A DNA stretch of 64,000 nt from an uncultured Gammaproteobacteria bacterium (GCA_964538765.1 CAZIHS010000002.1:1327-65326), one strand, 5' to 3'; counted from the first letter of the stretch, positions 11,812-54,981 are shown. A program made the numbers and translations. The notes: generated by a model from the letters alone, not told the origin.

Positions 11812-11829
11812 TTTTGTTATACTCTTTCT

Positions 11830-12321: not shown

Positions 12322-12322
12322 A

Positions 12323-12991: not shown

Positions 12992-12992
12992 C

Positions 12993-19369: not shown

Positions 19370-19370
19370 A

Positions 19371-36279: not shown

Positions 36280-36879
36280 ATGCTAAAAAAATTGGTTGCC
36301 GTTAACCTGTCACTTCTTATAATAATGGTGTTTTTACTGGTCATTATCCCCTCGGCTGTTATCACTAGATATCCAGGCCCGTCAAACCTTATTGGGGAAA
36401 CGATCCTGCCGCTCACTTCATCGTCCCCTCTGGTAATAAATATTGACCCGCCCAAATATCTAAATTCAATTAGTGTATTTTTAAAAAATCCACTAATTCA
36501 AGACAACCATTACATCTATTTTCAGTTAATTCAAAACGGGTTGACAATCAGAAACCTTGTTTTTAACGGCCAGAACGTCGGCGATCCCAGCTGGCTTACG
36601 GCCAAATTCGAGCCGTTATCGGCCCAGCAACCAATAACCATAACGTTTACCACCGAAAACAAAAACGACCAATCTCTTTACTACTATTCAGGTCCCGATT
36701 ATCTCCCCCTATATTCCAGCACCTTCCAAATTCCTAGCTTTAAAGACAGGTTAATCTACCAAACAAAGTTAAAACAAAACCAACTTTTGGCCCTTAACAA
36801 ACAATTTCTATTTGCCTATCTGTTTTTATTATCAATCATCGAGTACCTGTTATTAAAAAATGATCGTAAGACATATTAA
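36280..36879 (+). CDS. Hypothetical membrane-anchored protein with extracytoplasmic domain
   Basis: One N-terminal TM helix, about 150 aa of non-hydrophobic domain, and a C-terminal hydrophobic segment. Confidence 0.35.
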   Translation: MLKKLVAVNLSLLIIMVFLLVIIPSAVITRYPGPSNLIGETILPLTSSSPLVINIDPPKYLNSISVFLKNPLIQDNHYIYFQLIQNGLTIRNLVFNGQNVGDPSWLTAKFEPLSAQQPITITFTTENKNDQSLYYYSGPDYLPLYSSTFQIPSFKDRLIYQTKLKQNQLLALNKQFLFAYLFLLSIIEYLLLKNDRKTY

Positions 36880-38584: not shown

Positions 38585-40248
38585 TCCAACGTCACCAGCA
38601 TCCCCGAGTTGTATTTTGAGATAGCTGAAGGTAAATAATATAGTGTTGAATAAGGCACCGAATAAATTTCCTCTCTTGCCGTATTGTCCTGCATCCACAA
38701 AATTGTTTTACGAAGATACTTGTCTTCAACGTAGTTAATTTTTCTGAATTCAAATTTCCCAAAGTCAAAATCTAAGTTACCATCTTTTGACCCTATCAGC
38801 TCACGATAATTTGCCAGTTTCTGGATGTAAAAAGGATTATATCTTAAATAAAAAAGCATAAAAATATAATTTTGAGCCTGCGGAGAATCAATTATTACAC
38901 GATCATAGTTATTCAGTATGGGCATAATTATTTTCAATCCTTGTCTATATCCTCCAGGCTGAAACTCGCCATTATTTTCCCAAATCGAATAAACATATTC
39001 GCTGTTAACTACAAACGCCAACTGCCACAAAACAAACACGGTAAACAGGATTTTAATAATCAACCGTTTGTTCTCTAAAAAAGAAAATGTTGCCAGCACT
39101 ACAGCCAACTCAACTACCGGCACCATGTTTAAAGACCTTAAGTGATGAAACCAGTTCCAGGTTAACGCGGCAGGAAGAACACCTGCCAAAAACCAATAAA
39201 TCAAAAACCGAAACTTTTTTGTACCCAGCCTTTTTAGTACGTAAATAATGCCAGGCAGTAACATTATGTATTCCCAAAAACCCAGTAGTGAAAAATCAGG
39301 GGTATACTGCACTGACTTTCTAATCCAATGATACGCGGTTGAGCCAAAGTTAGCCACCGAGACGTAAGACAAAATATGTCCGGCCAGATACTCCATTAAG
39401 TAATAGGCCGGATTAATTCTTAGCCATTCCATCAATCCTTCCTTATACAATTCTTTAGGAGAAAAAGGGTAATATCTGCTAAATATATTTTCTTGTCTAA
39501 ACCTTTGCAGCGCACCGATAGATTTACCTGAGACCATCATTGGAGCTAAAACCAGCATTGTCAAAAAACATATCAAAAACAACCTTCTAAACAGGTCGCT
39601 GGATACAAAAAAACGTTTTTTAAGTTCAATAAAACGTCTCAACGGGTCTGTCGTTAAAAGCACCATCAAGACCGGAAAAGCCAATCTGGCCGAGTGGTAA
39701 CTATATGCCGCCCCGGCCATAAACAAAAACCCTGCCAAAAAGTTTAATTTTCGTTTGTTACCTAAAAACCATCTTAACAAAAAATACACTCCCCAGCTAA
39801 ATAAAGCCATTGAAACATTAGTTTCAAGCGCAATCCTTGAAAAATGGATTCGCCACGGCTCAAATGAAATCAATAGGCTAAATATAAATGAAACCATCGG
39901 CCTATTCGTAAATAAATTCAATATTAAAAAGAAAGCGACAATACTTAGCGAACCAAACACCGCCGAGGGCAATCTAACAGTTGACTGGTTTAACCCAAAA
40001 ATTTTAATAAACGGAATTGTGGTATAAGCGTAAAGAGCAGGCTTATAATCGTTAAAAGACCTGATATTTATTGGATACAAATTTCCCCATTCATCTTTAC
40101 CGTTGGTAGCAATTGAATAGGCGTTATAGCCAAGAGATGCCTCGTCCCAATTTAACGAATAAGGTGACTTATCTAACCACACCGATCTAAATATAAGCGA
40201 TACTAAGAACAACATTGTGGAAAATATCAATAAACCCGATTTAGTCAT
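38581..40248 (-). CDS. PMT_2/ArnT-like GT-C glycosyltransferase (close paralog of 44883/46480/48113)
   Basis: 'SLNWDEASLGYNAYSIATNGKDEWGNLYPINIRSFNDYKPALYAYTTIPFIKIFGLNQSTVRLPSAVFGS' is nearly colinear with the three tandem paralogs. Confidence 0.7.
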   Translation of the reverse strand: MTKSGLLIFSTMLFLVSLIFRSVWLDKSPYSLNWDEASLGYNAYSIATNGKDEWGNLYPINIRSFNDYKPALYAYTTIPFIKIFGLNQSTVRLPSAVFGSLSIVAFFLILNLFTNRPMVSFIFSLLISFEPWRIHFSRIALETNVSMALFSWGVYFLLRWFLGNKRKLNFLAGFLFMAGAAYSYHSARLAFPVLMVLLTTDPLRRFIELKKRFFVSSDLFRRLFLICFLTMLVLAPMMVSGKSIGALQRFRQENIFSRYYPFSPKELYKEGLMEWLRINPAYYLMEYLAGHILSYVSVANFGSTAYHWIRKSVQYTPDFSLLGFWEYIMLLPGIIYVLKRLGTKKFRFLIYWFLAGVLPAALTWNWFHHLRSLNMVPVVELAVVLATFSFLENKRLIIKILFTVFVLWQLAFVVNSEYVYSIWENNGEFQPGGYRQGLKIIMPILNNYDRVIIDSPQAQNYIFMLFYLRYNPFYIQKLANYRELIGSKDGNLDFDFGKFEFRKINYVEDKYLRKTILWMQDNTAREEIYSVPYSTLYYLPSAISKYNSGMLVTLD

Positions 40249-41501
40249 TCAATAAGCCCAAATACTATATAATCGCCATAACCATAGGCTATTGTGTCTC
40301 TAAGTTTAATCCAGTCAAGCACTTTTACCCCTTTCCCCTCTAATATGCTCTGCCAGTTATCATCAAAACTATTACCACTGTGCCTTCCAATAAACTCACC
40401 CACAAACCCGATATATACACCTCTGCTTACGTCTCCATCATTTTTCATATCAAAACCAGCAACACGAACACCGCTGCAGTTTGCAATATAGTATCGACAA
40501 AAACTCTCTCCCTTTCCAAGTCTTCCCGAAACCGTTATCTCCCCGGGTACTAAAGATTTTGCCTCTATAGCTTTTTCAAACATATACCGGTAAGCAAGCG
40601 GACGATTATCAAGCCAATGGTCTGGTCGGCTAGTCAGATCAAAATAAAAGGCCTGAAACCCGTAAACATAAAGAAATAATGTTAACAATCCAAACGACCG
40701 GCCAGACATGTTTCGCAAATACAATGAACTTGTATATGCAACCAGCCAAAGCGTCAGGCTGTGCCGGTTCCACCACTCACTACCGCCTACCAAATAGTTA
40801 ATTAATGCCACTGTCATTAAAAACAAAACTAGTTTGACTTCTTTTTCACTTTTCCGTACGTAAACGATTGCCAAAATTAGCCAAAATACTGCCGGCCAAA
40901 ATAAAATCGGCATCTCTTTTTTCATGTTCGGATGTATTTCAGCAAAATAAATATCTTCCAGGCTAAAAAATGACATCACCTCCTTGATTTCGTCCCTAAT
41001 GATCAAACCGTACTTGTTATTCGCTACTCTTCTAAAAATCATTGGTAGTCTAATCCTGTTGTCAATTTCATCCTCACGACTAAATCTCTCAATCGCAATT
41101 ATTTGAGCCCTTTTTAAAGAAAGATTATCCAAAATAACCGGTTTGGCTCCGTCCCTGTAATATTGACCAAAAAAATATAAAATCATAATGGCGAAAAGAG
41201 CGGTAATTAGCAAATATGTTCTATTTTTATATTTATTAGAAACCAGCCAAAAAATAAAGGCAAAAATAAGCCATTTTATGGCTTCAACGGGATAACACCA
41301 CCCTATTACAAAACTGACCGGAGAGGAAATGATAAGCAGAATCGAAAATAATGCCACCTTTCGATCGTATTTAAGTGTTCGGTAAGTCAAAAACAGCACC
41401 AGACACAATAACCCAAGCGTAACTAACCTTACAAAAGACGTACCTCCCCAAAGCTGATAAGCAGTTGGCGGATAGTTCCACCATCCTATTTGACCACTCA
41501 C
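40245..41501 (-). CDS. Hypothetical polytopic membrane protein with C-terminal soluble domain
   Basis: 418 aa. Several N-terminal TM helices and a roughly 150 aa C-terminal non-hydrophobic domain. No family recognised. Co-directional with 38581. Confidence 0.35.
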   Translation of the reverse strand: MSGQIGWWNYPPTAYQLWGGTSFVRLVTLGLLCLVLFLTYRTLKYDRKVALFSILLIISSPVSFVIGWCYPVEAIKWLIFAFIFWLVSNKYKNRTYLLITALFAIMILYFFGQYYRDGAKPVILDNLSLKRAQIIAIERFSREDEIDNRIRLPMIFRRVANNKYGLIIRDEIKEVMSFFSLEDIYFAEIHPNMKKEMPILFWPAVFWLILAIVYVRKSEKEVKLVLFLMTVALINYLVGGSEWWNRHSLTLWLVAYTSSLYLRNMSGRSFGLLTLFLYVYGFQAFYFDLTSRPDHWLDNRPLAYRYMFEKAIEAKSLVPGEITVSGRLGKGESFCRYYIANCSGVRVAGFDMKNDGDVSRGVYIGFVGEFIGRHSGNSFDDNWQSILEGKGVKVLDWIKLRDTIAYGYGDYIVFGLIE

Positions 41502-41546: not shown

Positions 41547-43187
41547 ATGCCTCGAACGCTGACTTTGGCCTTGATTGTTGTAATCGCCTTATTTATCCGA
41601 ACCTTTAATCTTTCCTCAATCCCTCCGGCTCTTTTTTCAGACGAAATCGATGCCGGCTATCAGGCCATGGTGTTTAACCGCTTTGGTTCAGACTATTTCG
41701 GAAACAAGTTTCCGGTTCATTTCCATTCTTTTTCCGACTGGCGAACCCCGCTTTACATATATTCTGTTGCCATTTTTCAAAAAATCGGTTTCAGCCCCGA
41801 AACCTCTATCAGGCTACCATCAGTGTTTTATAGTCTGCCGTGCCTGTTGTTTTTATATTTATTAACCAAATCATTAATTCCTCCGTTTATGTTTTCTTTA
41901 TCACCGTGGGCTGTTCACTACGGTCGAACAGGCTTTGAAGTCAGTGGTATGCTTTTTTGTCAAATAGCCTCGATAGTTTTTCTGCAAAATGGTTTAAAAA
42001 ATCGCTCTACTATTAAGCTTGCCGTCAGCCAACTTCTCCTAATATCATCTATCTATTTTTATAGCACTGCCAAACTCTTTGTTCCGTTTATTATACTTGC
42101 CGAAATTTATATCTACAGGCAGGCCCTGCGCAAATTTAGCAATAAAAGTCTTTTTATTGTTGGCCTCATTAGCCTGGTATTCATAGTCCCGCTAGTAAGA
42201 GACACCCTTCTTCGCCGAACCGGTTTTCGTTTTTCATACATCAGCATTATTACCGACCCGCAAGTTAAAAATCAGGTTGATTATCAACGTTATCAGGACA
42301 TTATCCTAAGCCATCAAAATCAAATTGGCGTAAGCCCTACTATATTTTCAAAAATAATTCATAACCGTTACACAAAAATTATCCAAACATTCCTGTTAAA
42401 CTACACCTCCTCTTTTTCTACTCAATTCCTGATTACAACCGGCGACACCAACCTTCGCCATGGTTTTGGAAACCGCGGCTATCTATACATCATCGACTTA
42501 TTACTTATAGCAACGGCAATTTTTACAATTTATAGATCACCCTCAAAGTTGTCCCTACTGTTCCTTATTTCACTTATTATTGCCCCCATCCCCTTTTCGC
42601 TTACCCGTGATTCAACTTCTCCTCATGCCACGAGATTAATTCTGATGCTTCCATCCTTAATATACCTTTCATACTTCGGCTTTGCCAAACTAGTTTCCCG
42701 TTATCAAATATTGGGGCCATTAATTATTATCGTGTATACAACCTCTTTTCTCCTGTTTTGGCACGATTATCAACTTCATTACCCTTTGGTATCGGCCCGA
42801 TATTGGCATTATGGTATTAAAGAGGCCGTTTTAGCCGCCACCCAAAATAATCCTTCTTCAATATATTTTTCAAACTCAGCCGAACCCTTTTTGCCATTCT
42901 TTCTTTTCTACCACCGCTATCTTCCTGCCTCATCAAAAGGAAACATTGCCTCGCAATTAACCAGCTACCGCGATAGCCGGTTTGACGGAAAGCAACTAGA
43001 AAGTAAGTACTATTTTGGCAATTTCACCTCAAACCTTACTGGTTTCCCTCCGGGCTCCTTACTTGTCCTGCCCCGGCTTGAGTATTATTCCAATCAAAAT
43101 TTTGCCTCTTTTAAAATCGTCCACCAAACACCTTTAAAATACCCTGAACAAGATCAGTTTTTTGTTTTAAATCCAAATGAAACATAA
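41547..43187 (+). CDS. PMT_2/ArnT-like GT-C glycosyltransferase
   Basis: 'IPPALFSDEIDAGYQAMVF...IRLPSVFY' loop motif, multi-TM. Confidence 0.65.
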   Translation: MPRTLTLALIVVIALFIRTFNLSSIPPALFSDEIDAGYQAMVFNRFGSDYFGNKFPVHFHSFSDWRTPLYIYSVAIFQKIGFSPETSIRLPSVFYSLPCLLFLYLLTKSLIPPFMFSLSPWAVHYGRTGFEVSGMLFCQIASIVFLQNGLKNRSTIKLAVSQLLLISSIYFYSTAKLFVPFIILAEIYIYRQALRKFSNKSLFIVGLISLVFIVPLVRDTLLRRTGFRFSYISIITDPQVKNQVDYQRYQDIILSHQNQIGVSPTIFSKIIHNRYTKIIQTFLLNYTSSFSTQFLITTGDTNLRHGFGNRGYLYIIDLLLIATAIFTIYRSPSKLSLLFLISLIIAPIPFSLTRDSTSPHATRLILMLPSLIYLSYFGFAKLVSRYQILGPLIIIVYTTSFLLFWHDYQLHYPLVSARYWHYGIKEAVLAATQNNPSSIYFSNSAEPFLPFFLFYHRYLPASSKGNIASQLTSYRDSRFDGKQLESKYYFGNFTSNLTGFPPGSLLVLPRLEYYSNQNFASFKIVHQTPLKYPEQDQFFVLNPNET

Positions 43188-44886
43188 ATTTTTTAAAGGA
43201 TATTTGGTAACTCTTGCGTTGTTTTTACTTTTTATATTTTCTTCCTGGCGGCTACTTCGGCCGGGATACTATTCGATGCAAGACGACATCCATGTTTTCC
43301 GGCTTTGGCAGTATCACCAATGTTTTAAGGACCATCAACTGCCATGCCGGTATGTTCCCGACGCTGGTTTTGGATACGGATATCCTCTGTTTAATTTTTA
43401 TTCACCGTTTTTCTATCAGGGCAGCCATCTTTTTTACCTTCTCGGCTTCTCACTTATTAATAGCATCAAAATTATGGTGGTTACTTCCAATGCCCTAATG
43501 GTCATCGGCATCTTTCTTTTAGCCGGCTTTCTATTTAACACCCCCGCCGCTGTTATTGTTTCGGCACTTTACACTTTAGCCCCCTACCACGCCCTTAACG
43601 TTTACGTACGTGGCGCCTTCTCTGAAAACCTGTCGCTCTCAATTCTGCCTATTTTAATTTATCTGACCCTGAAGTTTATCAAAATCACTTCCTTTTCAAC
43701 CGGCATCATCTTTACACTCTTCTTCACAACATATTTACTATCACACAACCTTTCAATAATTTATGGTCTACCCCTAATAGTTCTGTTCATAATAGTAATT
43801 TACTATAAACAGCCAGACCTAAAAAAAAGACTAATTAAATTTTCTATTTTCCCCATAATCTCGTTAGGAATTTCCTCATACTTTCTTATACCGGCAATTT
43901 TTGAAAAACGATTTACCACAGTTACAACCATGACCCAGGGGTATTTCAGCTTTATAAACCACTTCGTAACTCTTAAGCAGTTATTTACAGATCGAAACTG
44001 GAGTTATGGCGCCTCTCTTTGGGGTCCCAACGACGACATGTCTTTTCAAGTTGGAATTATTCATTGGATTGTCCCATTAATTTTTCTTCTAATTTTAACT
44101 GTAAAATATCTTACATCAAAAAATATTTCCTTTCCGTTTCATCAAGACCGTCTGGCATTATACCTATGCCTGATATCAATCCTGTTTATGTTTCTTACCC
44201 ACAACAGGTCAACTCCTCTTTGGCAATTGTTTCCCTTTATGCCATATTTTCAATTTCCCTGGCGCTTCTTAGGCCCTCTTTCCTTAACCCTGTCTTTGCT
44301 ATCCGGATATCTCTACTACCGGCTATTTTCATCCCATCCTCACCCAGTGACTATCTTGGTAATAATCATATCTTTGGTCACTTATCTAAACCTGCCATAT
44401 TTTAAAGAAGACATTTGGTATCCGGGTTACACCGATAAAGACAGGCTGACACCCTCTGAAATAGTTCGCCAAAGTGGGGCAGGTTTAAAAGATTACTGGC
44501 CAAACTATGGCACCAAGTTTCCGGATACTTATTCAAACAATACTCCTAAAATAGAAGCGGGAAAAGTCAAAACACTCGATTTTAAGAAAAATTCAACATC
44601 AGCAACCGCCTCCTTTCTTGTTATTTCTGATTCAGCCACTATTGTCTTGCCAGTTGTATTTTTTCCTAAAATGTCAACCTATGTTGACGGCAAACCAATT
44701 CAATTCTTCATCGACCCAGAGTATGGACTTATCAAAGTTAACCTTCCCAACGGCTCCCATCAATTGCTAGTTGAACTAAAAAATACCCCGGTTCGAATTT
44801 TTTCTAATATTATCTCCGGATTAAGTTTAATTGCCCTTTTCTGGCTAATACTATCCCACTCTATTCGAAAAGAATTCCGCCTATGA
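43177..44886 (+). CDS. YfhO-like GT-C-type polytopic membrane protein (paralog of 23219)
   Basis: 'SMQDDIHVFRLWQYHQCFKDHQLPCRYVPDAGFGYGYPLFNFY' is colinear with the 23219 protein, and the two share motifs along their whole length. Confidence 0.5.
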   Translation: MKHKFFKGYLVTLALFLLFIFSSWRLLRPGYYSMQDDIHVFRLWQYHQCFKDHQLPCRYVPDAGFGYGYPLFNFYSPFFYQGSHLFYLLGFSLINSIKIMVVTSNALMVIGIFLLAGFLFNTPAAVIVSALYTLAPYHALNVYVRGAFSENLSLSILPILIYLTLKFIKITSFSTGIIFTLFFTTYLLSHNLSIIYGLPLIVLFIIVIYYKQPDLKKRLIKFSIFPIISLGISSYFLIPAIFEKRFTTVTTMTQGYFSFINHFVTLKQLFTDRNWSYGASLWGPNDDMSFQVGIIHWIVPLIFLLILTVKYLTSKNISFPFHQDRLALYLCLISILFMFLTHNRSTPLWQLFPFMPYFQFPWRFLGPLSLTLSLLSGYLYYRLFSSHPHPVTILVIIISLVTYLNLPYFKEDIWYPGYTDKDRLTPSEIVRQSGAGLKDYWPNYGTKFPDTYSNNTPKIEAGKVKTLDFKKNSTSATASFLVISDSATIVLPVVFFPKMSTYVDGKPIQFFIDPEYGLIKVNLPNGSHQLLVELKNTPVRIFSNIISGLSLIALFWLILSHSIRKEFRL

Positions 44887-46490
44887 CAAAATTTTATCAA
44901 AAATTCCTGTTTATTCTAATCCTTTTTCTTGCAATATTTCTGCGGTTTTACCGCCTTGGCTCGCTGATGCCATCCCTAAATTGGGACGAAATATCTCACG
45001 GTTATAACGCCTACAGCCTGCTTAAAACCGGAAAAGACCAATGGAACCAACCCTTTCCAGTATTTAACTTTCGTGCCTATGGAGACTACCCGATGGCCGC
45101 GAATCTCTACCTAACCCTTCCCTTTATTAAAGTTTTCGGTCTAAACAATTATTCTGTGCGACTACCCTCCGCGGTCCTTGGCTCCATATTCGTAGTTATA
45201 ATTTACCTGTTTGTCTACAAGGTAACTCGAAACCAGCTGCTTTCCTTGGTTATTATGACTGCTTCTGCCATCATTCCATGGACTCTATTTCCTTCAAGAG
45301 CGGTTTTTCAATCAAACCTGGCTCAGTTGTTTTTACTGCTCAGCTTACTGCTCCTGATTATTTCTAGGTCAAAAATACGGTTCTTTCCCTTTTCAATATT
45401 ATTCCTGGTTGTCTCAAGCTATTGTTATCACAACACCCGTTTTTTAAGTCCGTTTTTAATAGTCGCTTACTTCACCCATTATTGTTACTACCACCATCAT
45501 CTTCAAAATTTTAAAAAAATTCTATTAACATCGTCGCTAATACTGCTCCTTTACCTCCCAAATTTTTTTAATATCTTTCAACCTGAAAGCTGGGCTCGGA
45601 CTCAATGGGTTGGAGTTCTTGGCCAAAACTCCATCAATATTATCAACGAAAAAAGACGCCTTTTTAACGGACCACAATTTGTTAGCCGCATCGTCTACAA
45701 CAAAGCTTCATTCCTGGGCAATGTACTGGTAAAAAACTATCTTAGCTTTTTTAATCCTTCCTATATATTTTTCAGAGGCAGTCAAAATTACCAGTTTAAC
45801 CCGCCCCAAACCCCGTTAATATTTTCAGTATTTCTCCCGTTCTTTTATATTGGAATTTACCCGTTACTTAAAAAATATCCTTTCCTGTTTTTTATGTGGA
45901 TGCTTACGCTTCTGCCGGCAGCTCTCACAATTGGCGACTATCCCTCAATAAGGATGACAATAGCTGTTCCATTTTATCTTTTATCTATTGCTCTCGGTAT
46001 TTCAGCCACAATAAAAGTTCTAAAAAGCTCATATCCTGCATACCTGTTTATTGTTATCGTTTCTCTAATTCAACTTAACTTCTGGTGGCAACGCTATTCC
46101 ACAGATTACGCAACAAACTATTCTCAAGCGTGGCAATATGGCTACCAGCCGGCTGTCGACTATATCAGAGCTGTATATAAAAAATACGACCATGTTGTCT
46201 TTACTAAAAAATATGGTGAACCGCACCAATTTATTTTATTTTATTGGCCATGGGAACCTGCCATCTACCAGTCGTCTCCTGTTTTGTGGGATTTTCATTC
46301 TGGATGGTACTGGGTAAACTCATTTGATAAGTTTACTTTTATAGACGACTGGCAAATAAAAGATCAGACATTTTATCCCAAAACGCTCCTGATTACCTCG
46401 CCTGACAATGTTCCAAATATCAATTTAACTAAACTGAAAACCATATATTATCCAAACAGCAAACCCGTATTCGAAATATATGAAAACTAA
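44883..46490 (+). CDS. PMT_2/ArnT-like GT-C glycosyltransferase (tandem paralog 1)
   Basis: 'SLNWDEISHGYNAYSLLKTGKDQW...YSVRLPSAVLGS' loop motif, multi-TM. Confidence 0.7.
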   Translation: MTKFYQKFLFILILFLAIFLRFYRLGSLMPSLNWDEISHGYNAYSLLKTGKDQWNQPFPVFNFRAYGDYPMAANLYLTLPFIKVFGLNNYSVRLPSAVLGSIFVVIIYLFVYKVTRNQLLSLVIMTASAIIPWTLFPSRAVFQSNLAQLFLLLSLLLLIISRSKIRFFPFSILFLVVSSYCYHNTRFLSPFLIVAYFTHYCYYHHHLQNFKKILLTSSLILLLYLPNFFNIFQPESWARTQWVGVLGQNSINIINEKRRLFNGPQFVSRIVYNKASFLGNVLVKNYLSFFNPSYIFFRGSQNYQFNPPQTPLIFSVFLPFFYIGIYPLLKKYPFLFFMWMLTLLPAALTIGDYPSIRMTIAVPFYLLSIALGISATIKVLKSSYPAYLFIVIVSLIQLNFWWQRYSTDYATNYSQAWQYGYQPAVDYIRAVYKKYDHVVFTKKYGEPHQFILFYWPWEPAIYQSSPVLWDFHSGWYWVNSFDKFTFIDDWQIKDQTFYPKTLLITSPDNVPNINLTKLKTIYYPNSKPVFEIYEN

Positions 46491-48132
46491 ACATAAAACC
46501 ACTCTCTTGCTGATTATCATTACTATTATTTCACTAATATTAAGATTGCACTCACTAAACTCATATCCGCCTCTTCTCTGGGACGAAGCCTCACTTGGAT
46601 ACAATGCCTACTCAATATTAACTACCGGAAAGGACGAACATGGCGCTGTTTTACCTATATTTTTTAAATCATTTGGTGACTACAAGCCTGGTCTATATGT
46701 ATATTTAACTATCCCGTTTGTCTATATTTTCGGTCTAAACACTTTATCAGTAAGACTCCCCTCAGCTCTACTTGGATCACTCCTTCCGCTTGTGTTCTAC
46801 TTATTGGTCAAACGCCTCACCGGCAATAGAAAACTATCTTTAATTTGCGCCTTAGTTTTAGCTTTTAACCCCTACAACCTTCATTATTCAAAAGGAGCCT
46901 GGGAAACAAACCTTTTATTATTCGAGCTGTGCCTTGCCTCATTACTCTACTACCATAATAAATATAATCTGGCCGCGGTTATTCTCGGCCTAACAATATA
47001 TTCATACCAAAGCGGAAAAATATTTAGCCTGATCCTCATCCTGGTCATATTTCTATCAAAACTATCCAGCATTAAAAATAATAAGCCGGCCGTCAAAGCA
47101 TTACTCCAAGTTTTCCCGGCCAGCTTTATGTTAATATTTCTGACTTTCTCCATTCCGGCAATTTTGGGGCTTATCTTTTCCCCTCAGGGGGACCGTTTGA
47201 AAGTCTTAAGCCTGTTTTCCTACCATCGGAGTATTCAGGAAACCGCTGAAATAAAAAAGGAATCTTTTGGACCTCTTGACTACAATTTATTTCACTCTGA
47301 AGCGATTTATTTTCTAAGGAATTTTATTCTGCGATACTTTAACAACTTTAGCCCGAAATTTCTAATTTTTGAAGGAGACTGGCAAAACCCCCGGCACAGT
47401 GCCCCCTACGCCGGCGTAATATTAATCCCTTCGTTTGCATTTCTAATAATCGGTCTTTTCGTTCGAAAAACAGTAAAAAGCACCAAAGCTTTCATATTTT
47501 TCATTCTTCTGCTTTTGCTTTCACCAATCCCGGCTTCTCTCACCCGTGATACTATCCAAGCCACCCGAAGCTTACCATTTTCCCTTCCACTGGTATATTT
47601 TACCTCACTCGGGTTATACCAGGCACTAAAACTGTGCCAAAAGCTCCTGATGTTACCAAGATATTTCTCTTTCGCCCTGGTATGCATTATCTACCTGTTC
47701 GCATTTATATATTATCAAGACTTATATTATAGCCATATGATTAAAAAGTCGCCAAAGGACTGGTTGTATGGTTACCAACAGGCCATCGAATACATTAAAC
47801 ACAACCGCATTCCAGAAACCAAAGTATACTTAACCAACTTTTACGGACAGCCCTACATATTTTACCTGTTTTTTAACAAATTCCCCCCAACTTTATATCA
47901 ACAGCAATCAAAGCTGATTTCAACCGGTCCGGATGTTGGACAAATTTATTCGATTAAAAGTGACAACATAATTTTTACCAGTCCCGATTTTAATAACCTT
48001 AAATATCAACCAAATACCCTGATCGTCATCTCGGACGACGAGGTTTTAAGGCAGGGGATAGACAAAAACCTGCTAACCCCGCTTTCCCAGATCGGCGGAA
48101 TTTCAACATTTTATGGCTACAAAACATACTAA
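46480..48132 (+). CDS. PMT_2/ArnT-like GT-C glycosyltransferase (tandem paralog 2)
   Basis: 'PLLWDEASLGYNAYSILTTGKDEHG...LSVRLPSALLGS' loop motif, multi-TM. Confidence 0.7.
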   Translation: MKTKHKTTLLLIIITIISLILRLHSLNSYPPLLWDEASLGYNAYSILTTGKDEHGAVLPIFFKSFGDYKPGLYVYLTIPFVYIFGLNTLSVRLPSALLGSLLPLVFYLLVKRLTGNRKLSLICALVLAFNPYNLHYSKGAWETNLLLFELCLASLLYYHNKYNLAAVILGLTIYSYQSGKIFSLILILVIFLSKLSSIKNNKPAVKALLQVFPASFMLIFLTFSIPAILGLIFSPQGDRLKVLSLFSYHRSIQETAEIKKESFGPLDYNLFHSEAIYFLRNFILRYFNNFSPKFLIFEGDWQNPRHSAPYAGVILIPSFAFLIIGLFVRKTVKSTKAFIFFILLLLLSPIPASLTRDTIQATRSLPFSLPLVYFTSLGLYQALKLCQKLLMLPRYFSFALVCIIYLFAFIYYQDLYYSHMIKKSPKDWLYGYQQAIEYIKHNRIPETKVYLTNFYGQPYIFYLFFNKFPPTLYQQQSKLISTGPDVGQIYSIKSDNIIFTSPDFNNLKYQPNTLIVISDDEVLRQGIDKNLLTPLSQIGGISTFYGYKTY

Positions 48133-49735
48133 TATCATTTTATCGATAATACTTTTGCTGGCTCTTGTTATTCGCGGCTGGCATCTCTCCTCCGTTCCAG
48201 CCTTAAATCCTGACGAAGCCTCGCTCGGCTACAATGCTTTTTCAATCATCAACACCTTAAAAGACGAGCATGGTTCACTTCTTCCAATTCATTTTAAATC
48301 CTTTGGTGACTTTAAGCCGGGAGGATATGTTTACCTGTCCATCCCCTTTATTAAAATATTCGGGCTAAATCCTTTGGCCGTAAGACTACCCAATCTGATA
48401 TTTTCTATTCTGGCGATATATATATTCTCCAAACTGATCCTGCTTCTTTCTGCTAACCAAACTTTAGCACTTATCTCCGCCGTCTTTTTATCAATTTCTC
48501 CCTGGCACATTCACTTTTCGCGCGGCGCCTGGGAAAGCAATGTCGCTCTCACTTTAATACTGGTAGCAAACTATTATTTTCTATTATTTGTTCGTCAGTC
48601 TAAAAATCGTTATCTATACTATTCTCTGGCCTTATTTTCAACCTCCCTCTATTTTTATCATTCAGCCCGCATTTTAGCTCCAACCTTACTGCTTTTCTTA
48701 TTAATCTCAAACTACAAAAAACTTGCAGATCATAAAATAACAGTTTTCACGGCTATTGCTTTATTTTTACTAATCGCTGGCCCGGTTACCATATCTTTTA
48801 TTACAAACGGTGGCAGTTCGAGATTTTCAGGAGTTGGCCTGTTGGCTGATCCCGGTCCGCTTTCCCGATCAGAGGAGTTATTAAACCACCACTCAAGTAC
48901 CCTTCTTGGCTACAGAACCATCCACAACCGCCGTTTGCTATACCTGCTATCATGGTCAGAAAAATATCTATCCCATTTCAGTCCCAACTTTTTATTCGTT
49001 ACCGGCGATGAAGTCCCCAGATCAAAATCTCCGGAGGTCGGCCAGCTAAACCTTATCGATTTCCCTTTGATTATAGTCGGCGCCTATATAATTTTTTCCA
49101 CCTCTTCATCTCTTGTTATTAAGAATTTTTATCTTTCCTGGTTCATTCTCGCCCCTTTGGCCTCTTCATTAACATTCCAATCACCGTCCGCACTACGTTC
49201 CCTGCCTCTGGTAATTCCCTTTATTGGGCTTTCTTCCACTGGCTTCTACTACATAGCCACAACCGTTCGGCGCAAAATTCCCGGTCTATTCGAAATCATA
49301 TCAATTATCGCCATTGCCGCCATCGTCTATTTCCATATATATTATTTAGACGCCTATTTTATTCACTCACCAAAAAGGTATCCATTTGCCTGGAACACGT
49401 CTGCCGACAAAATAGTCTCGGTTATAAACCAAAATAAGGATAAATACAATCAAGTATATCTTACAACTAAATATGACCAGCCATACATCCTATATTTATT
49501 TTATAGTCACTATCCACCGGCCCAAATTCAATCTCAAATAAAACTAACCCCAAAAGATCAGTTTGGCTTCTCGACGGTGTCCAAAATTGACAATATCTAT
49601 TTTGAAAAAATCAACTGGTCAAATATCCCGGCCAACTCTTTAGTTATAGCCGCAGACGAACCCGTGCCTCAAGGGCCTGCTAAGGTGCTAAATTTTCCAA
49701 ACGGTTCACCCGGTTATAATATATACATCAAATGA
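48113..49735 (+). CDS. PMT_2/ArnT-like GT-C glycosyltransferase (tandem paralog 3)
   Basis: 'ALNPDEASLGYNAFSIINTLKDEHG...LAVRLPNLIFS' loop motif, multi-TM. Confidence 0.7.
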   Translation: MATKHTNIILSIILLLALVIRGWHLSSVPALNPDEASLGYNAFSIINTLKDEHGSLLPIHFKSFGDFKPGGYVYLSIPFIKIFGLNPLAVRLPNLIFSILAIYIFSKLILLLSANQTLALISAVFLSISPWHIHFSRGAWESNVALTLILVANYYFLLFVRQSKNRYLYYSLALFSTSLYFYHSARILAPTLLLFLLISNYKKLADHKITVFTAIALFLLIAGPVTISFITNGGSSRFSGVGLLADPGPLSRSEELLNHHSSTLLGYRTIHNRRLLYLLSWSEKYLSHFSPNFLFVTGDEVPRSKSPEVGQLNLIDFPLIIVGAYIIFSTSSSLVIKNFYLSWFILAPLASSLTFQSPSALRSLPLVIPFIGLSSTGFYYIATTVRRKIPGLFEIISIIAIAAIVYFHIYYLDAYFIHSPKRYPFAWNTSADKIVSVINQNKDKYNQVYLTTKYDQPYILYLFYSHYPPAQIQSQIKLTPKDQFGFSTVSKIDNIYFEKINWSNIPANSLVIAADEPVPQGPAKVLNFPNGSPGYNIYIK

Positions 49736-50517
49736 ACAAAATAACAAAACAACCTCCCTCCTTATCGGTGGCCATTGCCACCTACAATGAACAAAACAAT
49801 ATCAAGCGCTGCCTTGACAGCGTCAAAATGCTAGCCAGCGAAATCATAATCGTCGACGGTCAATCAACCGACGGCACCATCTCTATTGCCAAAAAATATA
49901 AAAACACCAAAATAATATCTACAACAAATAAGCCAAACTTTCACCTCAACAAACAACTGGCAATAGACAATTGCACCTCAGATTGGATTCTGCAGCTTGA
50001 TGCGGACGAATCAGTTTCGCGAGAGTTAGCAAATGAAATAACAAAAACAATTGCTTCGACTCACCTTGATGGTTTCTGGATAAAACGCAAAAACTTTTTT
50101 CTGGGTAGATTTATCACCAAAGGCGGATTTTATCCTGATCCAACACTAAGGCTGTATCGTCGTGGAAAAGCCAGACTACCCTGTCAAGATGTCCACGAAC
50201 AGGCCGAAGTTAACGGACAAGTGGGTTGGTTGACAAATGATCTTCTCCATTTTTCCGACCCAACTTTCTCTCGCTACCTTCTCAGAAACGACCGGTACAC
50301 CTCTCTAATTGCCACAAAACTTTATGAAAATGGCGTCCGGGCAAATATTTTAAATTTTGTTAAGTATTTTTTTCTAAGGCCGACAATCACCTTTATATCT
50401 ACATATTTTCGACATCGAGGCTATGTTGACGGCTTTCCCGGCTTTGTCTTTTGTTTTTTTTCGGCACTTAGATTTCCAATATCTTTCGTCAAACTATGGG
50501 AACTGTCCAAAACATAA
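49732..50517 (+). CDS. GT2 glycosyltransferase (paralog of 29721/31560)
   Basis: 'LSVAIATYNEQNNI', 'IVDGQSTDGT', 'LQLDADE' and 'GGFYPD' motifs. Confidence 0.75.
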   Translation: MNKITKQPPSLSVAIATYNEQNNIKRCLDSVKMLASEIIIVDGQSTDGTISIAKKYKNTKIISTTNKPNFHLNKQLAIDNCTSDWILQLDADESVSRELANEITKTIASTHLDGFWIKRKNFFLGRFITKGGFYPDPTLRLYRRGKARLPCQDVHEQAEVNGQVGWLTNDLLHFSDPTFSRYLLRNDRYTSLIATKLYENGVRANILNFVKYFFLRPTITFISTYFRHRGYVDGFPGFVFCFFSALRFPISFVKLWELSKT

Positions 50518-51590
50518 AAAAACCAAAAAATATCGCCATTGATATTAGTCCACTTCAAGACTCCAACTCAAAAAGGGGAGTCGGCTTTTATACCCGACTA
50601 CTTATAGACTCTCTTCATACTGAAATTAAGTTAAATCCAGATTTTTCCCGATTTAAAATATCGCTGGTTACAAACAATATTTTTCCGGCCAAAACAAGTT
50701 TAATCCATTACCCGTTTTTCAATCCTTTCCAAAAAACATTACCGGCCAAAACATATTGCCCCACCATAGTTACAATTCACGACCTGATCCCAAGACAACT
50801 TAAAAAATATTATCCGGTTGGCCTAAAAGGAGAAATTAATTGGCTTTTCCAAAAACACCGCCTAAAAAACATTGACTATATTATCACCGATTCTCACACT
50901 TCTAAATATGAAATTCATCGCCACACCGGCTATCCTCTGGACCGCATGTATGTTATCTATCTGGCCGCGGCCGACTACATTAAACCCGTAAAAAACACGG
51001 CGATTCTAAAAAAAATACAAAAAAAGTATCACCTTCCCGATAAATTTGTACTCTACGTTGGCGATATTAATTACAATAAAAATATCCCCCTGCTGGTTAA
51101 CACCTGTCTCGATCTCAAGTATCCTTTAGTAATTATCGGTGACTCAGCCAAAAGTCAAGATGTTCCCACGCACCCCTGGACCAAAGACCTCCTCTGGCTT
51201 CAGTCCAAAGCCAAAACTACCCCTGCCAGCCAGCTGATTTTAACCGGTTTTGTTCCAGACTCTGAAATATCGGCCATCTATTCGCTTGCCACTATCTATT
51301 GCCAACCGTCTTTTGCTGAGGGTTTTGGGCTTCCTTTAGTTGAAGCCATGCAGGCCGGCTGTCCAACCGTTTACAGCTCGGAATCGTGTTTAGAAGAAAT
51401 TAGCCAAAATTCAGGCATATCGTTTTCGCCCTACTCTGCCCAAGAGCTATCGTTAGCTCTAAAACAAATTTGGACATCTCCACTTATAGCCAACAAACTA
51501 ATAAAACTTGGTCTTAAAAGAGCCAAATACTTCAGTTGGTCATTCACCGCCAAACAAACACTTTCTGTTTATCAACTCGCCCTACTATAA
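50496..51590 (+). CDS. GT4 (GT-B fold) glycosyltransferase
   Basis: 'FAEGFGLPLVEAMQAGCPTV' is the E-x7-E region of the GT4 family. Confidence 0.8.
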   Translation: MGTVQNIKKPKNIAIDISPLQDSNSKRGVGFYTRLLIDSLHTEIKLNPDFSRFKISLVTNNIFPAKTSLIHYPFFNPFQKTLPAKTYCPTIVTIHDLIPRQLKKYYPVGLKGEINWLFQKHRLKNIDYIITDSHTSKYEIHRHTGYPLDRMYVIYLAAADYIKPVKNTAILKKIQKKYHLPDKFVLYVGDINYNKNIPLLVNTCLDLKYPLVIIGDSAKSQDVPTHPWTKDLLWLQSKAKTTPASQLILTGFVPDSEISAIYSLATIYCQPSFAEGFGLPLVEAMQAGCPTVYSSESCLEEISQNSGISFSPYSAQELSLALKQIWTSPLIANKLIKLGLKRAKYFSWSFTAKQTLSVYQLALL

Positions 51591-52394
51591 ATGCCACCGA
51601 CAAAACATTTTTTATCGGTAATTATTCCTGTTTACAAACAGGAAAAAACAATTTCCAAAGATGTCGAAAACATCACCAGTACCTTAAACAACATTCGCTA
51701 TCCTTACGAAGTAATCGCGGTAGTTGATGGCACTTCAGCCGATAATTCCTACAATATTCTTAAAAAACTAAAACTGCCAAACCTAAAAGTATATGGCTAT
51801 CAAACAAACCATGGTAAAGGTTACGCCATCCGCTTTGGCATGGCCAAAACAAAAGGGGATTATATTGCCTTTATTGACTCGGGGATGGAAATAGACCCAA
51901 ATGGCATTTCGCTTTTAATAGAACACCTGGAATGGTATCAGGCCGATATAATTGTCGGTTCAAAACACCATCCCGCCTCAAAGGTTCACTACCCTTTTTT
52001 CCGTCAGCTACTTAGCTATATCTCCTGGCTCTACTCAAAGATATTTCTCGGAATAAACGTTAGAGACACCCAGGCGGGACTAAAACTTTTTCGGCGGCCG
52101 GTTTTAGTCACCATCCTGCCCAGGCTTCTAATCAAAAGTTTTGCCTTCGATATGGAAATATTATCTGTTGCTTCTCGGCTTGGTTATAATCGAATTTACG
52201 AGGCACCGATAAAACTTACCTACGTTTTCGAGGGTCTTCATCTCAACGGACGTTTTTACCACACATTGTTTAAAATAGGGCTAGATTCGCTGGCAATTTT
52301 TTATCGACTGCGTCTCCTGAAATACTATGACGACCGAAACCATCGTCGCTGGCGGTATGACCCCGAGCTTAGAATGAGAATAAACATTGGGTAA
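51591..52394 (+). CDS. GT2 polyprenyl-phosphate sugar synthase-like glycosyltransferase
   Basis: 'LSVIIPVYKQEKTI', 'VIAVVDGTSADNS' and 'IAFIDSGMEID' are DPM1/GtrB-like motifs. Confidence 0.75.
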   Translation: MPPTKHFLSVIIPVYKQEKTISKDVENITSTLNNIRYPYEVIAVVDGTSADNSYNILKKLKLPNLKVYGYQTNHGKGYAIRFGMAKTKGDYIAFIDSGMEIDPNGISLLIEHLEWYQADIIVGSKHHPASKVHYPFFRQLLSYISWLYSKIFLGINVRDTQAGLKLFRRPVLVTILPRLLIKSFAFDMEILSVASRLGYNRIYEAPIKLTYVFEGLHLNGRFYHTLFKIGLDSLAIFYRLRLLKYYDDRNHRRWRYDPELRMRINIG

Positions 52395-52398
52395 ACTT

Positions 52399-53412
52399 AT
52401 GAATAACCGCCTATTATTTTCTATAATTATTCCTGTTCGTATTGAAAACAGCTACCTTAAGGAAACCATTAAACACCTAAACAACCAAAGTGAAAAAAGC
52501 TTTGAGTTATTGGTAATAACCGATAAGCTGGCGTCTTTATTATCACTCAGTTCAAAATATAATATAGGACCATCGGCCAAACGCAACCTTGGAGCTAAAA
52601 TCGCCAAAGGAAAATACCTGGCCTTTATCGACGACGACTCCTACCCAAACCAGAATTGGTTAAAAAACGCCCTTATCCACCTAAACTCAGCCGCCGATAT
52701 TTCAGCAGTGTGTGGACCATCTCTCACCCCACCCTCCGACAATGTCTATCAACAGGCCTCTGGCCTCGTCTGGTCGTCCTGGTTTGGAGCAGGTGGCGCC
52801 GGGATATATCGAAATCGTATTAGCAAACCACGTTTTGTTGATGATTTTCCCTCAGTAAACTTAATTGTAAACAAGGCCGATTTCGACAAAATCGGTGGTT
52901 TCAACGAAAAATATTGGCCAGGTGAAGACACCCTTCTTTGTTTATCCATAGTTAACAGTTTAAATAAAAAAATCTATTATCATCCCTCAATCGTTGTATA
53001 CCATCATCGCCGCCAGGTCATTATTCCCCATCTTCAGCAAATCCGCCGCTACGCTATTCATCGCGGTTATTTTGCTAAAAAATACCCAAAAAACAGCCTG
53101 AAAATAGGGTATATAACTCCCTCAATATTTGTTATCTACCTGCTTCTAATCCTACCTATTTTATATCTTTTTCCCGCATTTCGCCTCCCAATTTTAATGC
53201 CCCTTGCAACCTACATAATTATACTGATATCCAACTTTGTCTACTCACTGCACCAGAATCGTAATCTGCCTTTATCTATCTATTTTGTGATCTCACTTCC
53301 GCTTACTCATATTTACTATGGAATCTTTTTTCCACTGGGTTACTTCAGTTCCGACCTGTCTTTAAAACTTCACAAAGTTAACACTAAAACCGGAAACTAT
53401 CTTGGCGGTTGA
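52399..53412 (+). CDS. GT2 glycosyltransferase with C-terminal transmembrane domain
   Basis: 'FSIIIPVRIENSYL' and 'FIDDDSYP' GT2 motifs, plus 3-4 C-terminal TM helices. The start was set at the ATG at 52399 (no overlap); a TTG at 52387 is also possible. Confidence 0.7.
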   Translation: MNNRLLFSIIIPVRIENSYLKETIKHLNNQSEKSFELLVITDKLASLLSLSSKYNIGPSAKRNLGAKIAKGKYLAFIDDDSYPNQNWLKNALIHLNSAADISAVCGPSLTPPSDNVYQQASGLVWSSWFGAGGAGIYRNRISKPRFVDDFPSVNLIVNKADFDKIGGFNEKYWPGEDTLLCLSIVNSLNKKIYYHPSIVVYHHRRQVIIPHLQQIRRYAIHRGYFAKKYPKNSLKIGYITPSIFVIYLLLILPILYLFPAFRLPILMPLATYIIILISNFVYSLHQNRNLPLSIYFVISLPLTHIYYGIFFPLGYFSSDLSLKLHKVNTKTGNYLGG

Positions 53413-53448: not shown

Positions 53449-54981
53449 ATGAGCAAAACAAAACCCACAATTTCCATTTCCTATCCTCCACTTTCAAATC
53501 AAAAAGGCCAGCCTTTTCTATCCCAAAATCGGCAGTTTCAATGGACCAACACTGGAAATGTAATTTACCCCGTTATTCCCGCCTACGGCGCCTCACTGTT
53601 AAAACAATCCGGCTACCAGGTGTTTTGGGACGATGCAATCTCAGAAAAAATTTCCTACTCCGATTGGCTGTCCCGTCTTAAAGACCGTAAACCAGAAGTA
53701 ATTTTTTTTGAAGCCAAAACTCCCACCATCAAAACACATTGGAAAATAATAAATGAAATAAAGGATCTAAACTTGACATCATGGAAACCCGTCATTGTGT
53801 TAATGGGAGATCACGTTACCGCTCTTCCGGCCGAATCCTTAAAACAATCAAAAGTTGATTTTGTCATAACCGGAGGAGATTACGATTTTATGATGCACAA
53901 CCTGGTTTCACATCTCTTCCTTTCCCAAAAACTTGAACCGGGTTTTTACTATAAAAGTAAAAGTCAAAACGGCAAGCACAAGATCGTCAATACCGGCCCT
54001 TTTGCCCTCAAACATCACCAACTTGACAGTCTTCCGTTTATCGACCGGAAACTGACCCGATGGGAATTATACGCCTACGACAATACAAACTATAAATACA
54101 CGCCAGGAACATATTTAATGTCGGGGCGGGATTGCTGGTGGGGAAAGTGTACTTTTTGCTCATGGACCACCACCCACCCGGCAGGGACATTCCGCTTTTT
54201 CTCCCCAAAAAGACTTCTGGATGAAATTGACAAAATATCCGCCGAATACGGAGTCAAAGAAATTTTCGATGATGCCGGAACACTTCCGATAGGTCCATGG
54301 CTTTCTCAATTCTGCCAGGGACTCATAAGCCGGGGTCTGAACAAAAAACTACGCTATGGATGCAACATGCGTTTTTCGGCGTTAAACCAATCACAATATT
54401 ACCAAATGGGCCAGGCTGGCTTCCGGTTTATTCTCTATGGTCTTGAGTCAAATAACCAAAGTACATTAGACAAAATCAAAAAAAACACCAAAGTAGAAGA
54501 GGCAAGAAAAACATTAATAATGGCAAAAAAGGCCAATTTAGAGCCGCACCTGACTATTATGATTGGCTACCCCTGGGAAACCATAAATGACGCCACCAAC
54601 ACTTTAAACGAGGCTCGCCGGCTATTTCTTGATGGTTTGGCCGACACCATGCAAGCCACCCGGATAATTCCTTATCCCGGCACGCCGCTATTCGAACAAT
54701 GCCGAAAAAACGGTTGGCTTCTTACCGAAAACTGGGATGATTACGATATGCGCCAGCCAGTAATGAAGTCACCCATCAGTCACCTGGATCAAGAAAAGCT
54801 CATCCAGGATTTATTCAAAGGGATACTAACCCCAAAGTTTATTTATCGAAAAATATCAACCATCAGGAATCTAGACGACATAGTTTTCCTTTCCCGCTAC
54901 GCCATCAAATACCTTAAAAAGTTATCAGACTTCAGCATTAACAATGCCAAATCTCAAATCAAAACTCCAAAACTTCAATAA
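53449..54981 (+). CDS. B12-binding-domain radical SAM enzyme (class-B-like)
   Basis: N-terminal Rossmann-like B12-binding region ('VIVLMGDHVTALP...DFVITGGDYDF') followed by the cysteine triad 'CWWGKCTFC', which has CX4CX2C spacing. Confidence 0.7.
   Translation: MSKTKPTISISYPPLSNQKGQPFLSQNRQFQWTNTGNVIYPVIPAYGASLLKQSGYQVFWDDAISEKISYSDWLSRLKDRKPEVIFFEAKTPTIKTHWKIINEIKDLNLTSWKPVIVLMGDHVTALPAESLKQSKVDFVITGGDYDFMMHNLVSHLFLSQKLEPGFYYKSKSQNGKHKIVNTGPFALKHHQLDSLPFIDRKLTRWELYAYDNTNYKYTPGTYLMSGRDCWWGKCTFCSWTTTHPAGTFRFFSPKRLLDEIDKISAEYGVKEIFDDAGTLPIGPWLSQFCQGLISRGLNKKLRYGCNMRFSALNQSQYYQMGQAGFRFILYGLESNNQSTLDKIKKNTKVEEARKTLIMAKKANLEPHLTIMIGYPWETINDATNTLNEARRLFLDGLADTMQATRIIPYPGTPLFEQCRKNGWLLTENWDDYDMRQPVMKSPISHLDQEKLIQDLFKGILTPKFIYRKISTIRNLDDIVFLSRYAIKYLKKLSDFSINNAKSQIKTPKLQ

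Follow-up and report, generated by a model that had tools for sequence, protein, structure and literature searches.

We analysed a 64,000-nucleotide (nt) stretch of DNA (the window; GCA_964538765.1, CAZIHS010000002.1:1327-65326), deposited as an uncultured Gammaproteobacteria bacterium, and concentrated on three consecutive genes at 44883-49735 and a related gene in inverted orientation at 38581-40248. These genes encode polytopic glycosyltransferases (GTs) of the GT-C type that resemble the PMT_2 family. A sequence-only reading of the window had presented them as a recently duplicated tandem triplet accompanied by a fourth, inverted copy. Genes are named here by their leftmost coordinate, with m marking the minus strand.

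A colinear family of GT-C paralogs

An open reading frame (ORF) listing confirmed the positions and lengths proposed for the four genes, with products of 535, 550 and 540 amino acids (aa) on the plus strand and 555 aa on the minus strand (Table 1). The N-terminal loop said to unite them is visible in all four translations ('WDE..GYNA...GKDE...FGDYKP...FGLN..VRLP') and follows the pattern WDE/PDE-x-S-x-GYNA…GKDE/Q…(F/Y)(G/N)D(Y/F)(K/P)…PF(I/V)K(I/V)FGLN…VRLP. It reads LNWDEISHGYNAYSLLKTGKDQW...AYGDYPM...LPFIKVFGLNNYSVRLPSAVLGS in 44883, LLWDEASLGYNAYSILTTGKDEHG...SFGDYKPGLYVYLTIPFVYIFGLNTLSVRLPSALLGS in 46480, LNPDEASLGYNAFSIINTLKDEHG...SFGDFKPGGYVYLSIPFIKIFGLNPLAVRLPNLIFS in 48113 and LNWDEASLGYNAYSIATNGKDEWG...SFNDYKPALYAY..IPFIKIFGLNQSTVRLPSAVFGS in 38581m. 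The C-terminal motif fared less evenly: all three genes of the triplet have it (YGEPHQFILFY, YGQPYIFYLFF and YDQPYILYLFY; pattern Y(G/D)(Q/E)P(Y/H)…LF(Y/F)), and it is weaker in 38581m (SPQAQNYIFMLFY). Pairwise blastp shows that the relationship extends beyond these motifs, being far above chance and colinear along the full length. The strongest pair is 46480 and 48113 (34% identity over 550 aa, E 1e-81), followed by 44883 with 46480 (28.9% over 516 aa, E 2e-44) and with 48113 (26.3% over 528 aa, E 1e-39). The inverted copy matches 46480 and 48113 at ~28% over ~510 aa (E 1e-37 and 1e-40, respectively), and its match to 44883 (37.5%) is limited to the N-terminal 168 aa.

A membership of three plus one holds insofar as the four copies are related, but it is too low a count: all-against-all blastp recovered at least seven family members in the window. 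The fifth, 41547, is 22-27% identical to the rest of the family, reaching 27% and E 1e-28 against 46480 and 48113. The sixth, 36860, is the most divergent (22-25% identity by blastp, E 6e-21 to 46480) and retains the acidic Asp-Glu (DE) pair of the loop as NDELHF. The seventh, 28089, is ~24% identical to 48113 (E 1e-11) and has orthologues at 50-54% identity in two of the related loci introduced below (L008 and L011). Beyond the window, a library clustered at 50% identity holds 1,674 clusters of the focal family at E<=1e-30, and those that we examined are environmental sequences.

The genes of the array form one tight, co-directional run with overlapping frames, as had been described. Overlaps of 4, 11, 20 and 4 nt were measured at 44883, 46480, 48113 and 49732, matching the 4-20 nt described. 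Judged from spacing alone, these overlaps fit co-transcription and translational coupling of the run 41547-61972. Scans for promoters and terminators gave counts modestly above those of shuffled sequence, with no convincing plus-strand terminator within the array.

Ancient orthogroups in a fixed order

We compared the window with eleven related loci (L001-L004 and L006-L012) and built a neighbour-joining tree from L001-L009 (100 bootstraps, 526 trimmed columns). In this tree, 48113, 46480, 44883, 38581m, 41547 and 28089 fall into separate clades with 100% support, each with genes from other genomes. No window copy pairs with its neighbour, and the 46480 and 48113 orthogroups are sisters (bootstrap 79). 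Mean identity is 45-60% within orthogroups versus 20-33% between them. Window genes match their own orthologues at 35-56% identity, with values of 35-50% for 44883 (nine loci), 51-56% for 48113 (all comparable loci) and 42-43% for 38581m, whose inverted position is kept in L001 and L008. Orthologues of 46480 were found in more than 120 clusters at 90% identity, lying at 48-55% and, where named, overwhelmingly from metagenome-assembled genomes of Candidatus Shapirobacteria. They carry names such as 'phospholipid carrier-dependent glycosyltransferase', 'ArnT-like glycosyltransferase' and 'GT39 family protein'. A database entry identical to 46480 lies on a 69 kb NCBI contig. The proteins are already generically annotated in public databases, and their fold and system type are already known.

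Nucleotide comparisons between the paralogs revealed a similar depth. In each of the six pairs, Nei-Gojobori proportions of synonymous differences (pS) reach saturation (0.75-0.84), and nonsynonymous divergence (dN) is 0.71-0.86. Because of this saturation, a paralog ratio of nonsynonymous to synonymous divergence (dN/dS) is not computable. Identical residues use the same codon in just 34-37% of cases, approximately the expectation from codon usage. Surviving DNA similarity is confined to the codons of the loop, where we found a 180-nt direct repeat (72%) and a 37-nt inverted repeat. Local gene conversion in the loop was considered as a candidate explanation and ruled out; codon identity there is 15/30, again near the codon-usage expectation.

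Gene order is conserved as well. The succession 44883, 46480, 48113, GT2 (49732), GT4 (50496), GT2 (51591), GT2 (52387) and radical S-adenosylmethionine (SAM) gene (53449) is found in nine of the ten loci with enough flanking sequence (L001-L004, L007-L009, L011 and L012). Upstream of the array, 41547 followed by 43177 recurs in L007, L008 and L011, and the inverted pair of 38581m and 40245m recurs in L001 and L008. Even the overlap between 46480 and 48113, at 17-20 nt, is kept in five of the seven loci with called genes.

A younger event can be seen elsewhere in the family. In L007 (JGI 3300037608), at 10001-13214, the 46480 orthogroup is itself tandemly duplicated (L007_10001 and L007_11523; bootstrap 99). 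This pair shows what a recent duplication looks like in the same tree analysis.

These results overturn the proposal that the window copies are recent duplicates. Their full-length identity of 26-34% sits barely over the ~25% below which that proposal was to be abandoned. Synonymous sites are saturated, orthologues are closer than paralogs, and each copy sorts with its orthologues from related genomes in its own fully supported clade. Nor is the expansion lineage specific, as the orthogroups, with 100% bootstrap, and the gene order are common to other Shapirobacteria genomes. We conclude that tandem duplications gave rise to the paralogs and that these events predate the split of the sampled Shapirobacteria. 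Each copy has since remained an orthogroup of its own, in fixed order and under purifying selection, with conserved residues specific to each paralog.

Fold, conserved residues and proposed function

The assignment to PMT_2-like GT-C proteins stands, with Pfam PMT_2 and/or PMT matches over cutoff for 38581m, 46480 and 48113 and AlphaFold2 (AF2) models that adopt the GT-C fold. Gathering thresholds are 26.1 bits for PMT_2 (PF13231) and 22.7 bits for PMT (PF02366). PMT_2 is exceeded by these three and by 28089 (Table 1); 41547 falls under it at 18.3 bits, and neither 44883 nor 36860 has a match. Copies that miss the PMT_2 threshold are nonetheless homologous to the scoring ones along their full length by blastp. 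For PMT, only 46480 passes the threshold; 48113 (20.7 bits) and 38581m (17.6 bits) are under it and 44883 has no match. MIR and PMT_4TMC domains were absent at E<=0.01 from the nine GT-C proteins scanned. NCBIfam returned just far-sub-threshold traces to the Agl23, ArnT and LA_3751 families, and against the ArnT equivalog PRK13279 (cutoff 567 bits) 28089 scored 16.9 bits and the four focal genes gave no match.

Structural models were more informative. The AF2 model of 46480, built from a 51-sequence alignment, has a predicted local distance difference test (pLDDT) score of 90.9 and a predicted template modelling (pTM) score of 0.91; the 44883 model reaches 91.0 and 0.90, respectively. Foldseek searches of the Protein Data Bank (PDB) with both models retrieved solved GT-C enzymes, namely STT3/AglB/PglB, ArnT, ALG9/12, Pmt4, DPY19 and AftD/Emb, with sequence identity of at most 17%. 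For STT3, AglB, PglB, ArnT, ALG9/12, Pmt4 and AftD, the matches have probability 1.00, E values of 1e-6 to 1e-3 and template modelling (TM) scores of ~0.5. Hydropathy analysis found 6-9 hydrophobic segments per protein, set beside the 7-13 transmembrane helices that define GT-C_A. Helix order agrees between the two models as far as approximately residue 430. Beyond this point lies a soluble C-terminal domain that is mixed alpha/beta in the 46480 model and more strand rich in the 44883 model.

Three acidic residues, D35, E36 and D52 in the numbering of 46480, do not vary among 51 sequences. The DE pair is encoded at 44985-44990 in 44883 (D35-E36), 46582-46587 in 46480 (D35-E36), 48212-48217 in 48113 (D34-E35) and 40146-40141 in 38581m. 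Besides this pair, all seven orthogroups retain R363, which directly precedes a transmembrane helix, a basic residue at 180 and, at residues 290-305, the stretch F(S/N)PxFLFxxGD…R. In both AF2 models the DE pair lies 6-12 residues past the first transmembrane helix (TM1), in a loop that contains a helix and a hairpin. GT-C enzymes characteristically have an acidic motif in the extracytoplasmic loop that follows TM1, and the paralogs share this feature. That the loop faces outside is suggested by the lysine-rich N terminus and by analogy. ArnT, oligosaccharyltransferase (OST) and TMTC bind metal and the donor phosphate through an acidic pair and a Lys/His in external loop 1 (EL1), together with an EL3 Lys and an Arg that precedes TM10 (PMC7801869). 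By position, residue 180 and R363 may correspond to the basic residues with which ArnT and OST bind phosphate, and on this footing we predict that the paralogs use a lipid-linked donor on the outer face of the membrane.

Outside this module, the predicted divergence of the central and C-terminal regions was borne out. Identity between orthogroups drops to 15-23% at residues 241-320 and 481-550, compared with 57% at 41-80. Within orthogroups, the same two regions retain 49-65% identity. Being divergent between orthogroups and conserved within them, they are therefore constrained in a paralog-specific manner, a pattern that would be expected of regions that determine specificity.

Taken together, we think it probable that the triplet and its inverted relative belong to a set of at least seven PMT_2/ArnT-like GT-C paralogs that diverged anciently and lie in a conserved envelope-glycan island of Candidatus Shapirobacteria (Candidate Phyla Radiation (CPR)/Patescibacteria), and that they carry out non-redundant steps of glycan assembly. 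In the mechanism we propose, each paralog would reside in the membrane with its N terminus inside, as the GT-C fold and family imply, with the first extracytoplasmic loop holding the K/GDYKP element and the Asp-Glu pair. A polyprenyl-phosphate-sugar would be made in the cytoplasm by a neighbouring Dpm1/ArnC-like GT2 and then flipped across the membrane. The GT-C enzyme would bind the flipped donor and, on the outer face, pass its sugar on to an acceptor. The conserved N-terminal module would serve catalysis and lipid-phosphate binding, and the paralog-specific central loop (~240-320) and C-terminal soluble domain would set the acceptor or the linkage. The paralogs would then perform non-redundant steps, successive or parallel, that build or decorate a single complex surface glycan. 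Its route may begin with a lipid-linked glycan built inside, which is flipped, elaborated outside by the GT-C set and attached to peptidoglycan; because a Wzx-like flippase and a LytR-CpsA-Psr (LCP) ligase are encoded nearby, the product is most likely a wall-linked glycopolymer. The sequence-only reading had favoured a shared donor with different acceptors. This is possible, and several donors are equally possible: there are three candidate donor synthases, so more than one lipid-linked donor may serve the paralogs.

Known systems place these proteins in context. Multi-component transmembrane glycosylation systems with a PMT_2-type GT-C include Listeria GtlB, Bacillus subtilis YkcB and the Shigella Gtr proteins (Gtr*) (PMC8035078; PMC11127046). 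They share with the island a polytopic GT-C, with a PMT_2 signature in several of the paralogs, that carries acidic residues in its first outer loop. The array also adjoins GT-A (GT2) proteins with a sub-threshold resemblance to polyprenyl-phosphate-sugar synthases, and its neighbourhood holds a candidate Wzx-type flippase and a candidate LCP ligase. They differ in having one GT-C per GT-A, as opposed to at least seven paralogs of the same subfamily and at least fourteen GT-C-type proteins here, and no GtrA flippase was found among the scanned ORFs of the window. ArnT (GT83; Cupriavidus metallidurans, 5EZM/5F15) is the best match in size, with TM-scores of 0.52-0.53 by both lengths, ~540 residues and a C-terminal soluble domain; it also has a DE-type motif in the first periplasmic loop, and the paralogs have basic residues where ArnT binds undecaprenyl-phosphate. 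Against this, sequence identity is 9-13% and the NCBIfam ArnT equivalog is unmatched. A further difference is the acceptor, as the host is a monoderm-like CPR bacterium in which lipid A is presumably absent.

The most serious alternative is that these proteins are PMT-like protein O-glycosyltransferases, which would move mannose or another hexose from a polyprenyl-phosphate carrier onto secreted or surface proteins such as S-layer proteins, pilins or DUF11-type proteins. We regard this as unlikely, though it has substance. The N-terminal 150 residues of 46480 exceed the Pfam PMT cutoff, Pmt4 and Pmt1/2 are among the fold matches, the island has a DUF11 surface-protein gene at its left edge and 'glycosyltransferase family 39 protein' is an NCBI name for orthologues. 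GT39 enzymes (fungal Pmt1/2/4 and actinobacterial Pmt) have a DE pair in loop 1, which we take the DE loop of the paralogs to resemble, and in fungi they form paralog families with distinct acceptor specificities. However, MIR and PMT_4TMC were undetected in any copy, and superposition on Pmt covers only the N-terminal half (~270 columns). PMT structures align over ~265-300 columns at TM ~0.3, compared with full length for ArnT and OST. The island itself looks like one for polysaccharide assembly, with Wzx, GT2/GT4, LCP, carbamoyltransferase and radical SAM proteins.

Less probable still, we find the idea that neighbouring paralogs are obligate hetero-oligomers in the manner of Pmt1-Pmt2, their adjacency serving stoichiometric co-production. 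PMT members form both heterodimers and homodimers (titles of PDB entries 6p25 and 9i5k), 46480 and 48113 are sister orthogroups, and their order and overlap are kept among loci as described above. Yet the full set of catalytic-type residues is present in all orthogroups and none looks non-catalytic. Neither ArnT nor the described bacterial PMT_2 enzymes are known to need a paralog partner.

There is only a slim chance that some copies are GT-C accessory proteins without transferase activity, for example Agl23-like flippase-associated or acceptor-binding proteins. The N terminus of 46480 does match TIGR03663 (Agl23) at E 4e-11, but with 42.5 bits it remains far under the cutoff of 126 and the match spans only the generic N-terminal GT-C module. 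A second, acceptor-binding protein in small GT-C systems has been raised as speculation (PMC8035078); the DE pair and other conserved polar residues nonetheless persist in every orthogroup. Finally, it is next to impossible that a PMT_2 gene was recently triplicated in tandem in this lineage, with an inverted copy besides, and is now diversifying: the genes are adjacent, co-oriented, colinear and similar in length with strong N-terminal motifs, and the L007 pair shows that tandem duplication is still active in the family, but the low identity, saturated synonymous sites, closer orthologues and conserved order all speak against it, and rescuing it by supposing that the compared loci come from the same population is excluded by orthologue identities of 35-56%.

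Several observations weigh against our preferred reading of the paralogs as non-redundant enzymes of envelope-glycan assembly. The depth of the duplications is bounded by ~11 sampled loci, most of them without reliable taxonomy. Sequence searches of the PDB, whether from one protein or from a profile of 51 sequences, gave no match up to E=10, and structural TM-scores of ~0.5 do not discriminate between ArnT-like, OST-like and PMT-like proteins. The three candidate donor synthases (o15722, o20900 and o51591), which are paralogous Dpm1/ArnC/PpgS-like GT2 genes, align over their full length to ArnC, dolichyl-phosphate-hexose transferase and PpgS with 28-66 bits, set against cutoffs of 370-529. 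Neither a GtrA-type flippase nor an initiating phosphoglycosyltransferase was found in the scanned ORFs (o21351, o26361, o33420 and o34301 lay outside the Pfam/NCBIfam scan). Shine-Dalgarno-like sequences were not evident upstream of the starts.

The glycan-assembly island and what it implies

The array belongs to a glycan-assembly island of ~48 kb (~15722-63678) that fills the right three-quarters of the window, runs mostly on the plus strand and has overlapping or abutting frames. It encodes at least fourteen GT-C-type polytopic proteins, twelve GT2 and three GT4 proteins, together with methyltransferases, a Wzx-like flippase, two B12-binding radical SAM enzymes and a carbamoyltransferase (Table 1). 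Housekeeping genes lie to its left (SecA, BipA, RF2, FtsE/FtsX and an M23 peptidase).

Table 1 Genes of the paralog family and associated features in the window.
Feature	Coordinates	Strand	Description
GT-C paralog, orthogroup '44883'	44883..46490	+	535 aa; no Pfam match; clear family membership
GT-C paralog, orthogroup '46480'	46480..48132	+	550 aa; Pfam PMT 47 bits and PMT_2 30.0 bits
GT-C paralog, orthogroup '48113'	48113..49735	+	540 aa; Pfam PMT_2 45.8 bits
Inverted GT-C paralog, orthogroup '38581m'	38581..40248	-	555 aa; Pfam PMT_2 31.2 bits
Fifth family member	41547..43187	+	546 aa; opens the long plus-strand run; own orthogroup, 100% bootstrap
Sixth, most divergent family member	36860..38584	+	574 aa; blastp 22-25%, E 6e-21 to 46480
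Seventh family member	28089..29528	+	479 aa; without most of the C-terminal domain; Pfam PMT_2 43.8 bits
GT-C of another subfamily (PTPS_related/PMT_2-like)	43177..44886	+	569 aa; interleaved within the array
Polytopic protein, family not recognised	40245..41501	-	418 aa; 4-nt overlap with 38581m
GT2 - GT4 - GT2 - GT2 block	49732..53412 (49732, 50496, 51591, 52387)	+	Pfam
B12-binding radical SAM	53449..54981	+	Pfam; follows the GT block in every locus, 55-68% identity
Wzx-type flippase candidate (Polysacc_synt_3)	24913..26406	+	Pfam PF13440, E 3.5e-44
LytR-CpsA-Psr (LCP) protein	10058..11068	+	Pfam PF03816, E 5e-23; just left of the island
Carbamoyltransferase, NodU/CmcH-type	57653-59311		within the island

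Two polytopic proteins are interleaved with the family. The GT-C protein 43177 scores under the Pfam cutoffs (PMT_2 23.5 bits, PTPS_related 17.8 bits), has orthologues at 44-46% identity and keeps its position in L007, L008, L011 and L012. With 23219-24976 it forms a second ancient paralog pair (PTPS_related/YfhO-like; 32.5% over 575 aa). The other, 40245m, has no Pfam or NCBIfam match and no relation to the GT-C family by hhalign. We take it for a conserved, putative operon partner of 38581m. Its orthologues (~30% identity) adjoin that of 38581m in two loci (L001 and L008) and that of 41547 in L009.

Other GT-C-type proteins are more remote. A third paralog set, 16461 and 17849 on the plus strand and 19371 on the minus strand (16461-20867; PMT_2), shows ~30% identity in the N-terminal region only and by hhalign (64-96%) is a distant relative of the main family. 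A GT87 protein is encoded at 35089 within the island, and 21351 is a distant GT-C (hhalign probability 82% over 356 columns). For the polytopic proteins 26361, 40245m and 61969m, hhalign detected no relation to the GT-C family. The last of these (61969-63678, minus strand; 569 aa) has ~9 hydrophobic segments and C-terminal TPR repeats, recalling TMTC-like or O-antigen-ligase-like proteins. Some ORFs are probably spurious or mis-started: 19329-19733 (plus) runs opposite to 19371m and across its 3' end, 44019-44405 (plus) is nested within 43177 in another frame, and 21351, read from its TTG start, shares 335 nt (21351-21685) with 20900-21685, the true start of 21351 probably lying further downstream. 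No tRNA or Rfam family was found in the window.

The GT2/GT4 block downstream of the array keeps its order, at 51-68% identity, throughout the comparable loci. Its member o51591, syntenic with the array in all loci, is a candidate lipid-phosphate-sugar synthase. A second B12-binding radical SAM gene lies among glycosyltransferases at 59311-60822, and the two enzymes may C-methylate sugars or introduce another unusual modification. The Wzx-like protein 24913 may flip the main repeat unit instead of the donor, and the LCP protein 10058 is, from its family, a candidate ligase for attaching the glycopolymer to peptidoglycan. The DUF11 surface-protein gene on the left flank of the island (15032-15637, minus strand) is a candidate glycosylation target.

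Our search of the glycosyltransferase literature on Shapirobacteria, Microgenomates, CPR and Patescibacteria found nothing relevant, broader papers on Patescibacteria surfaces having been judged by titles and the openings of abstracts. A functional parallel comes from the mycobacterial GT-C set (EmbA/B/C, AftA-D, PimE and Mpt), in which many GT-C enzymes each make one linkage from polyprenyl-phosphate-sugar donors on a wall glycan attached to peptidoglycan by LCP proteins. AftD, EmbC, AftB and PimE are among the weaker fold matches to the paralogs. Unlike the island, the mycobacterial genes are dispersed, and they belong to other GT-C families with no detectable sequence relationship; the analogy is one of function only.

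The array is not evidence of ongoing gene-family innovation, and the appeal of a fresh duplication is lost. In its place stand clean, ancient and syntenic orthogroups that combine a common catalytic module with loops and C termini of their own, a natural experiment for locating the parts of a GT-C enzyme that determine acceptor or linkage specificity. Shapirobacteria are ultra-small bacteria with reduced genomes. That a small-genome CPR bacterium gives a contiguous ~48 kb, with at least fourteen GT-C-type enzymes, to surface-glycan assembly fits an importance of such glycans in an episymbiotic lifestyle. We tentatively suggest that Shapirobacteria build their main envelope glycopolymer largely outside the membrane, through a line of a dozen or more GT-C enzymes in which a CPR-expanded PMT_2 subfamily contributes one linkage per paralog. 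If true, this would be functionally analogous to mycobacterial synthesis of arabinogalactan and lipoarabinomannan by unrelated enzymes, with the radical SAM methylation and carbamoylation genes adding unusual decorations to the glycan.

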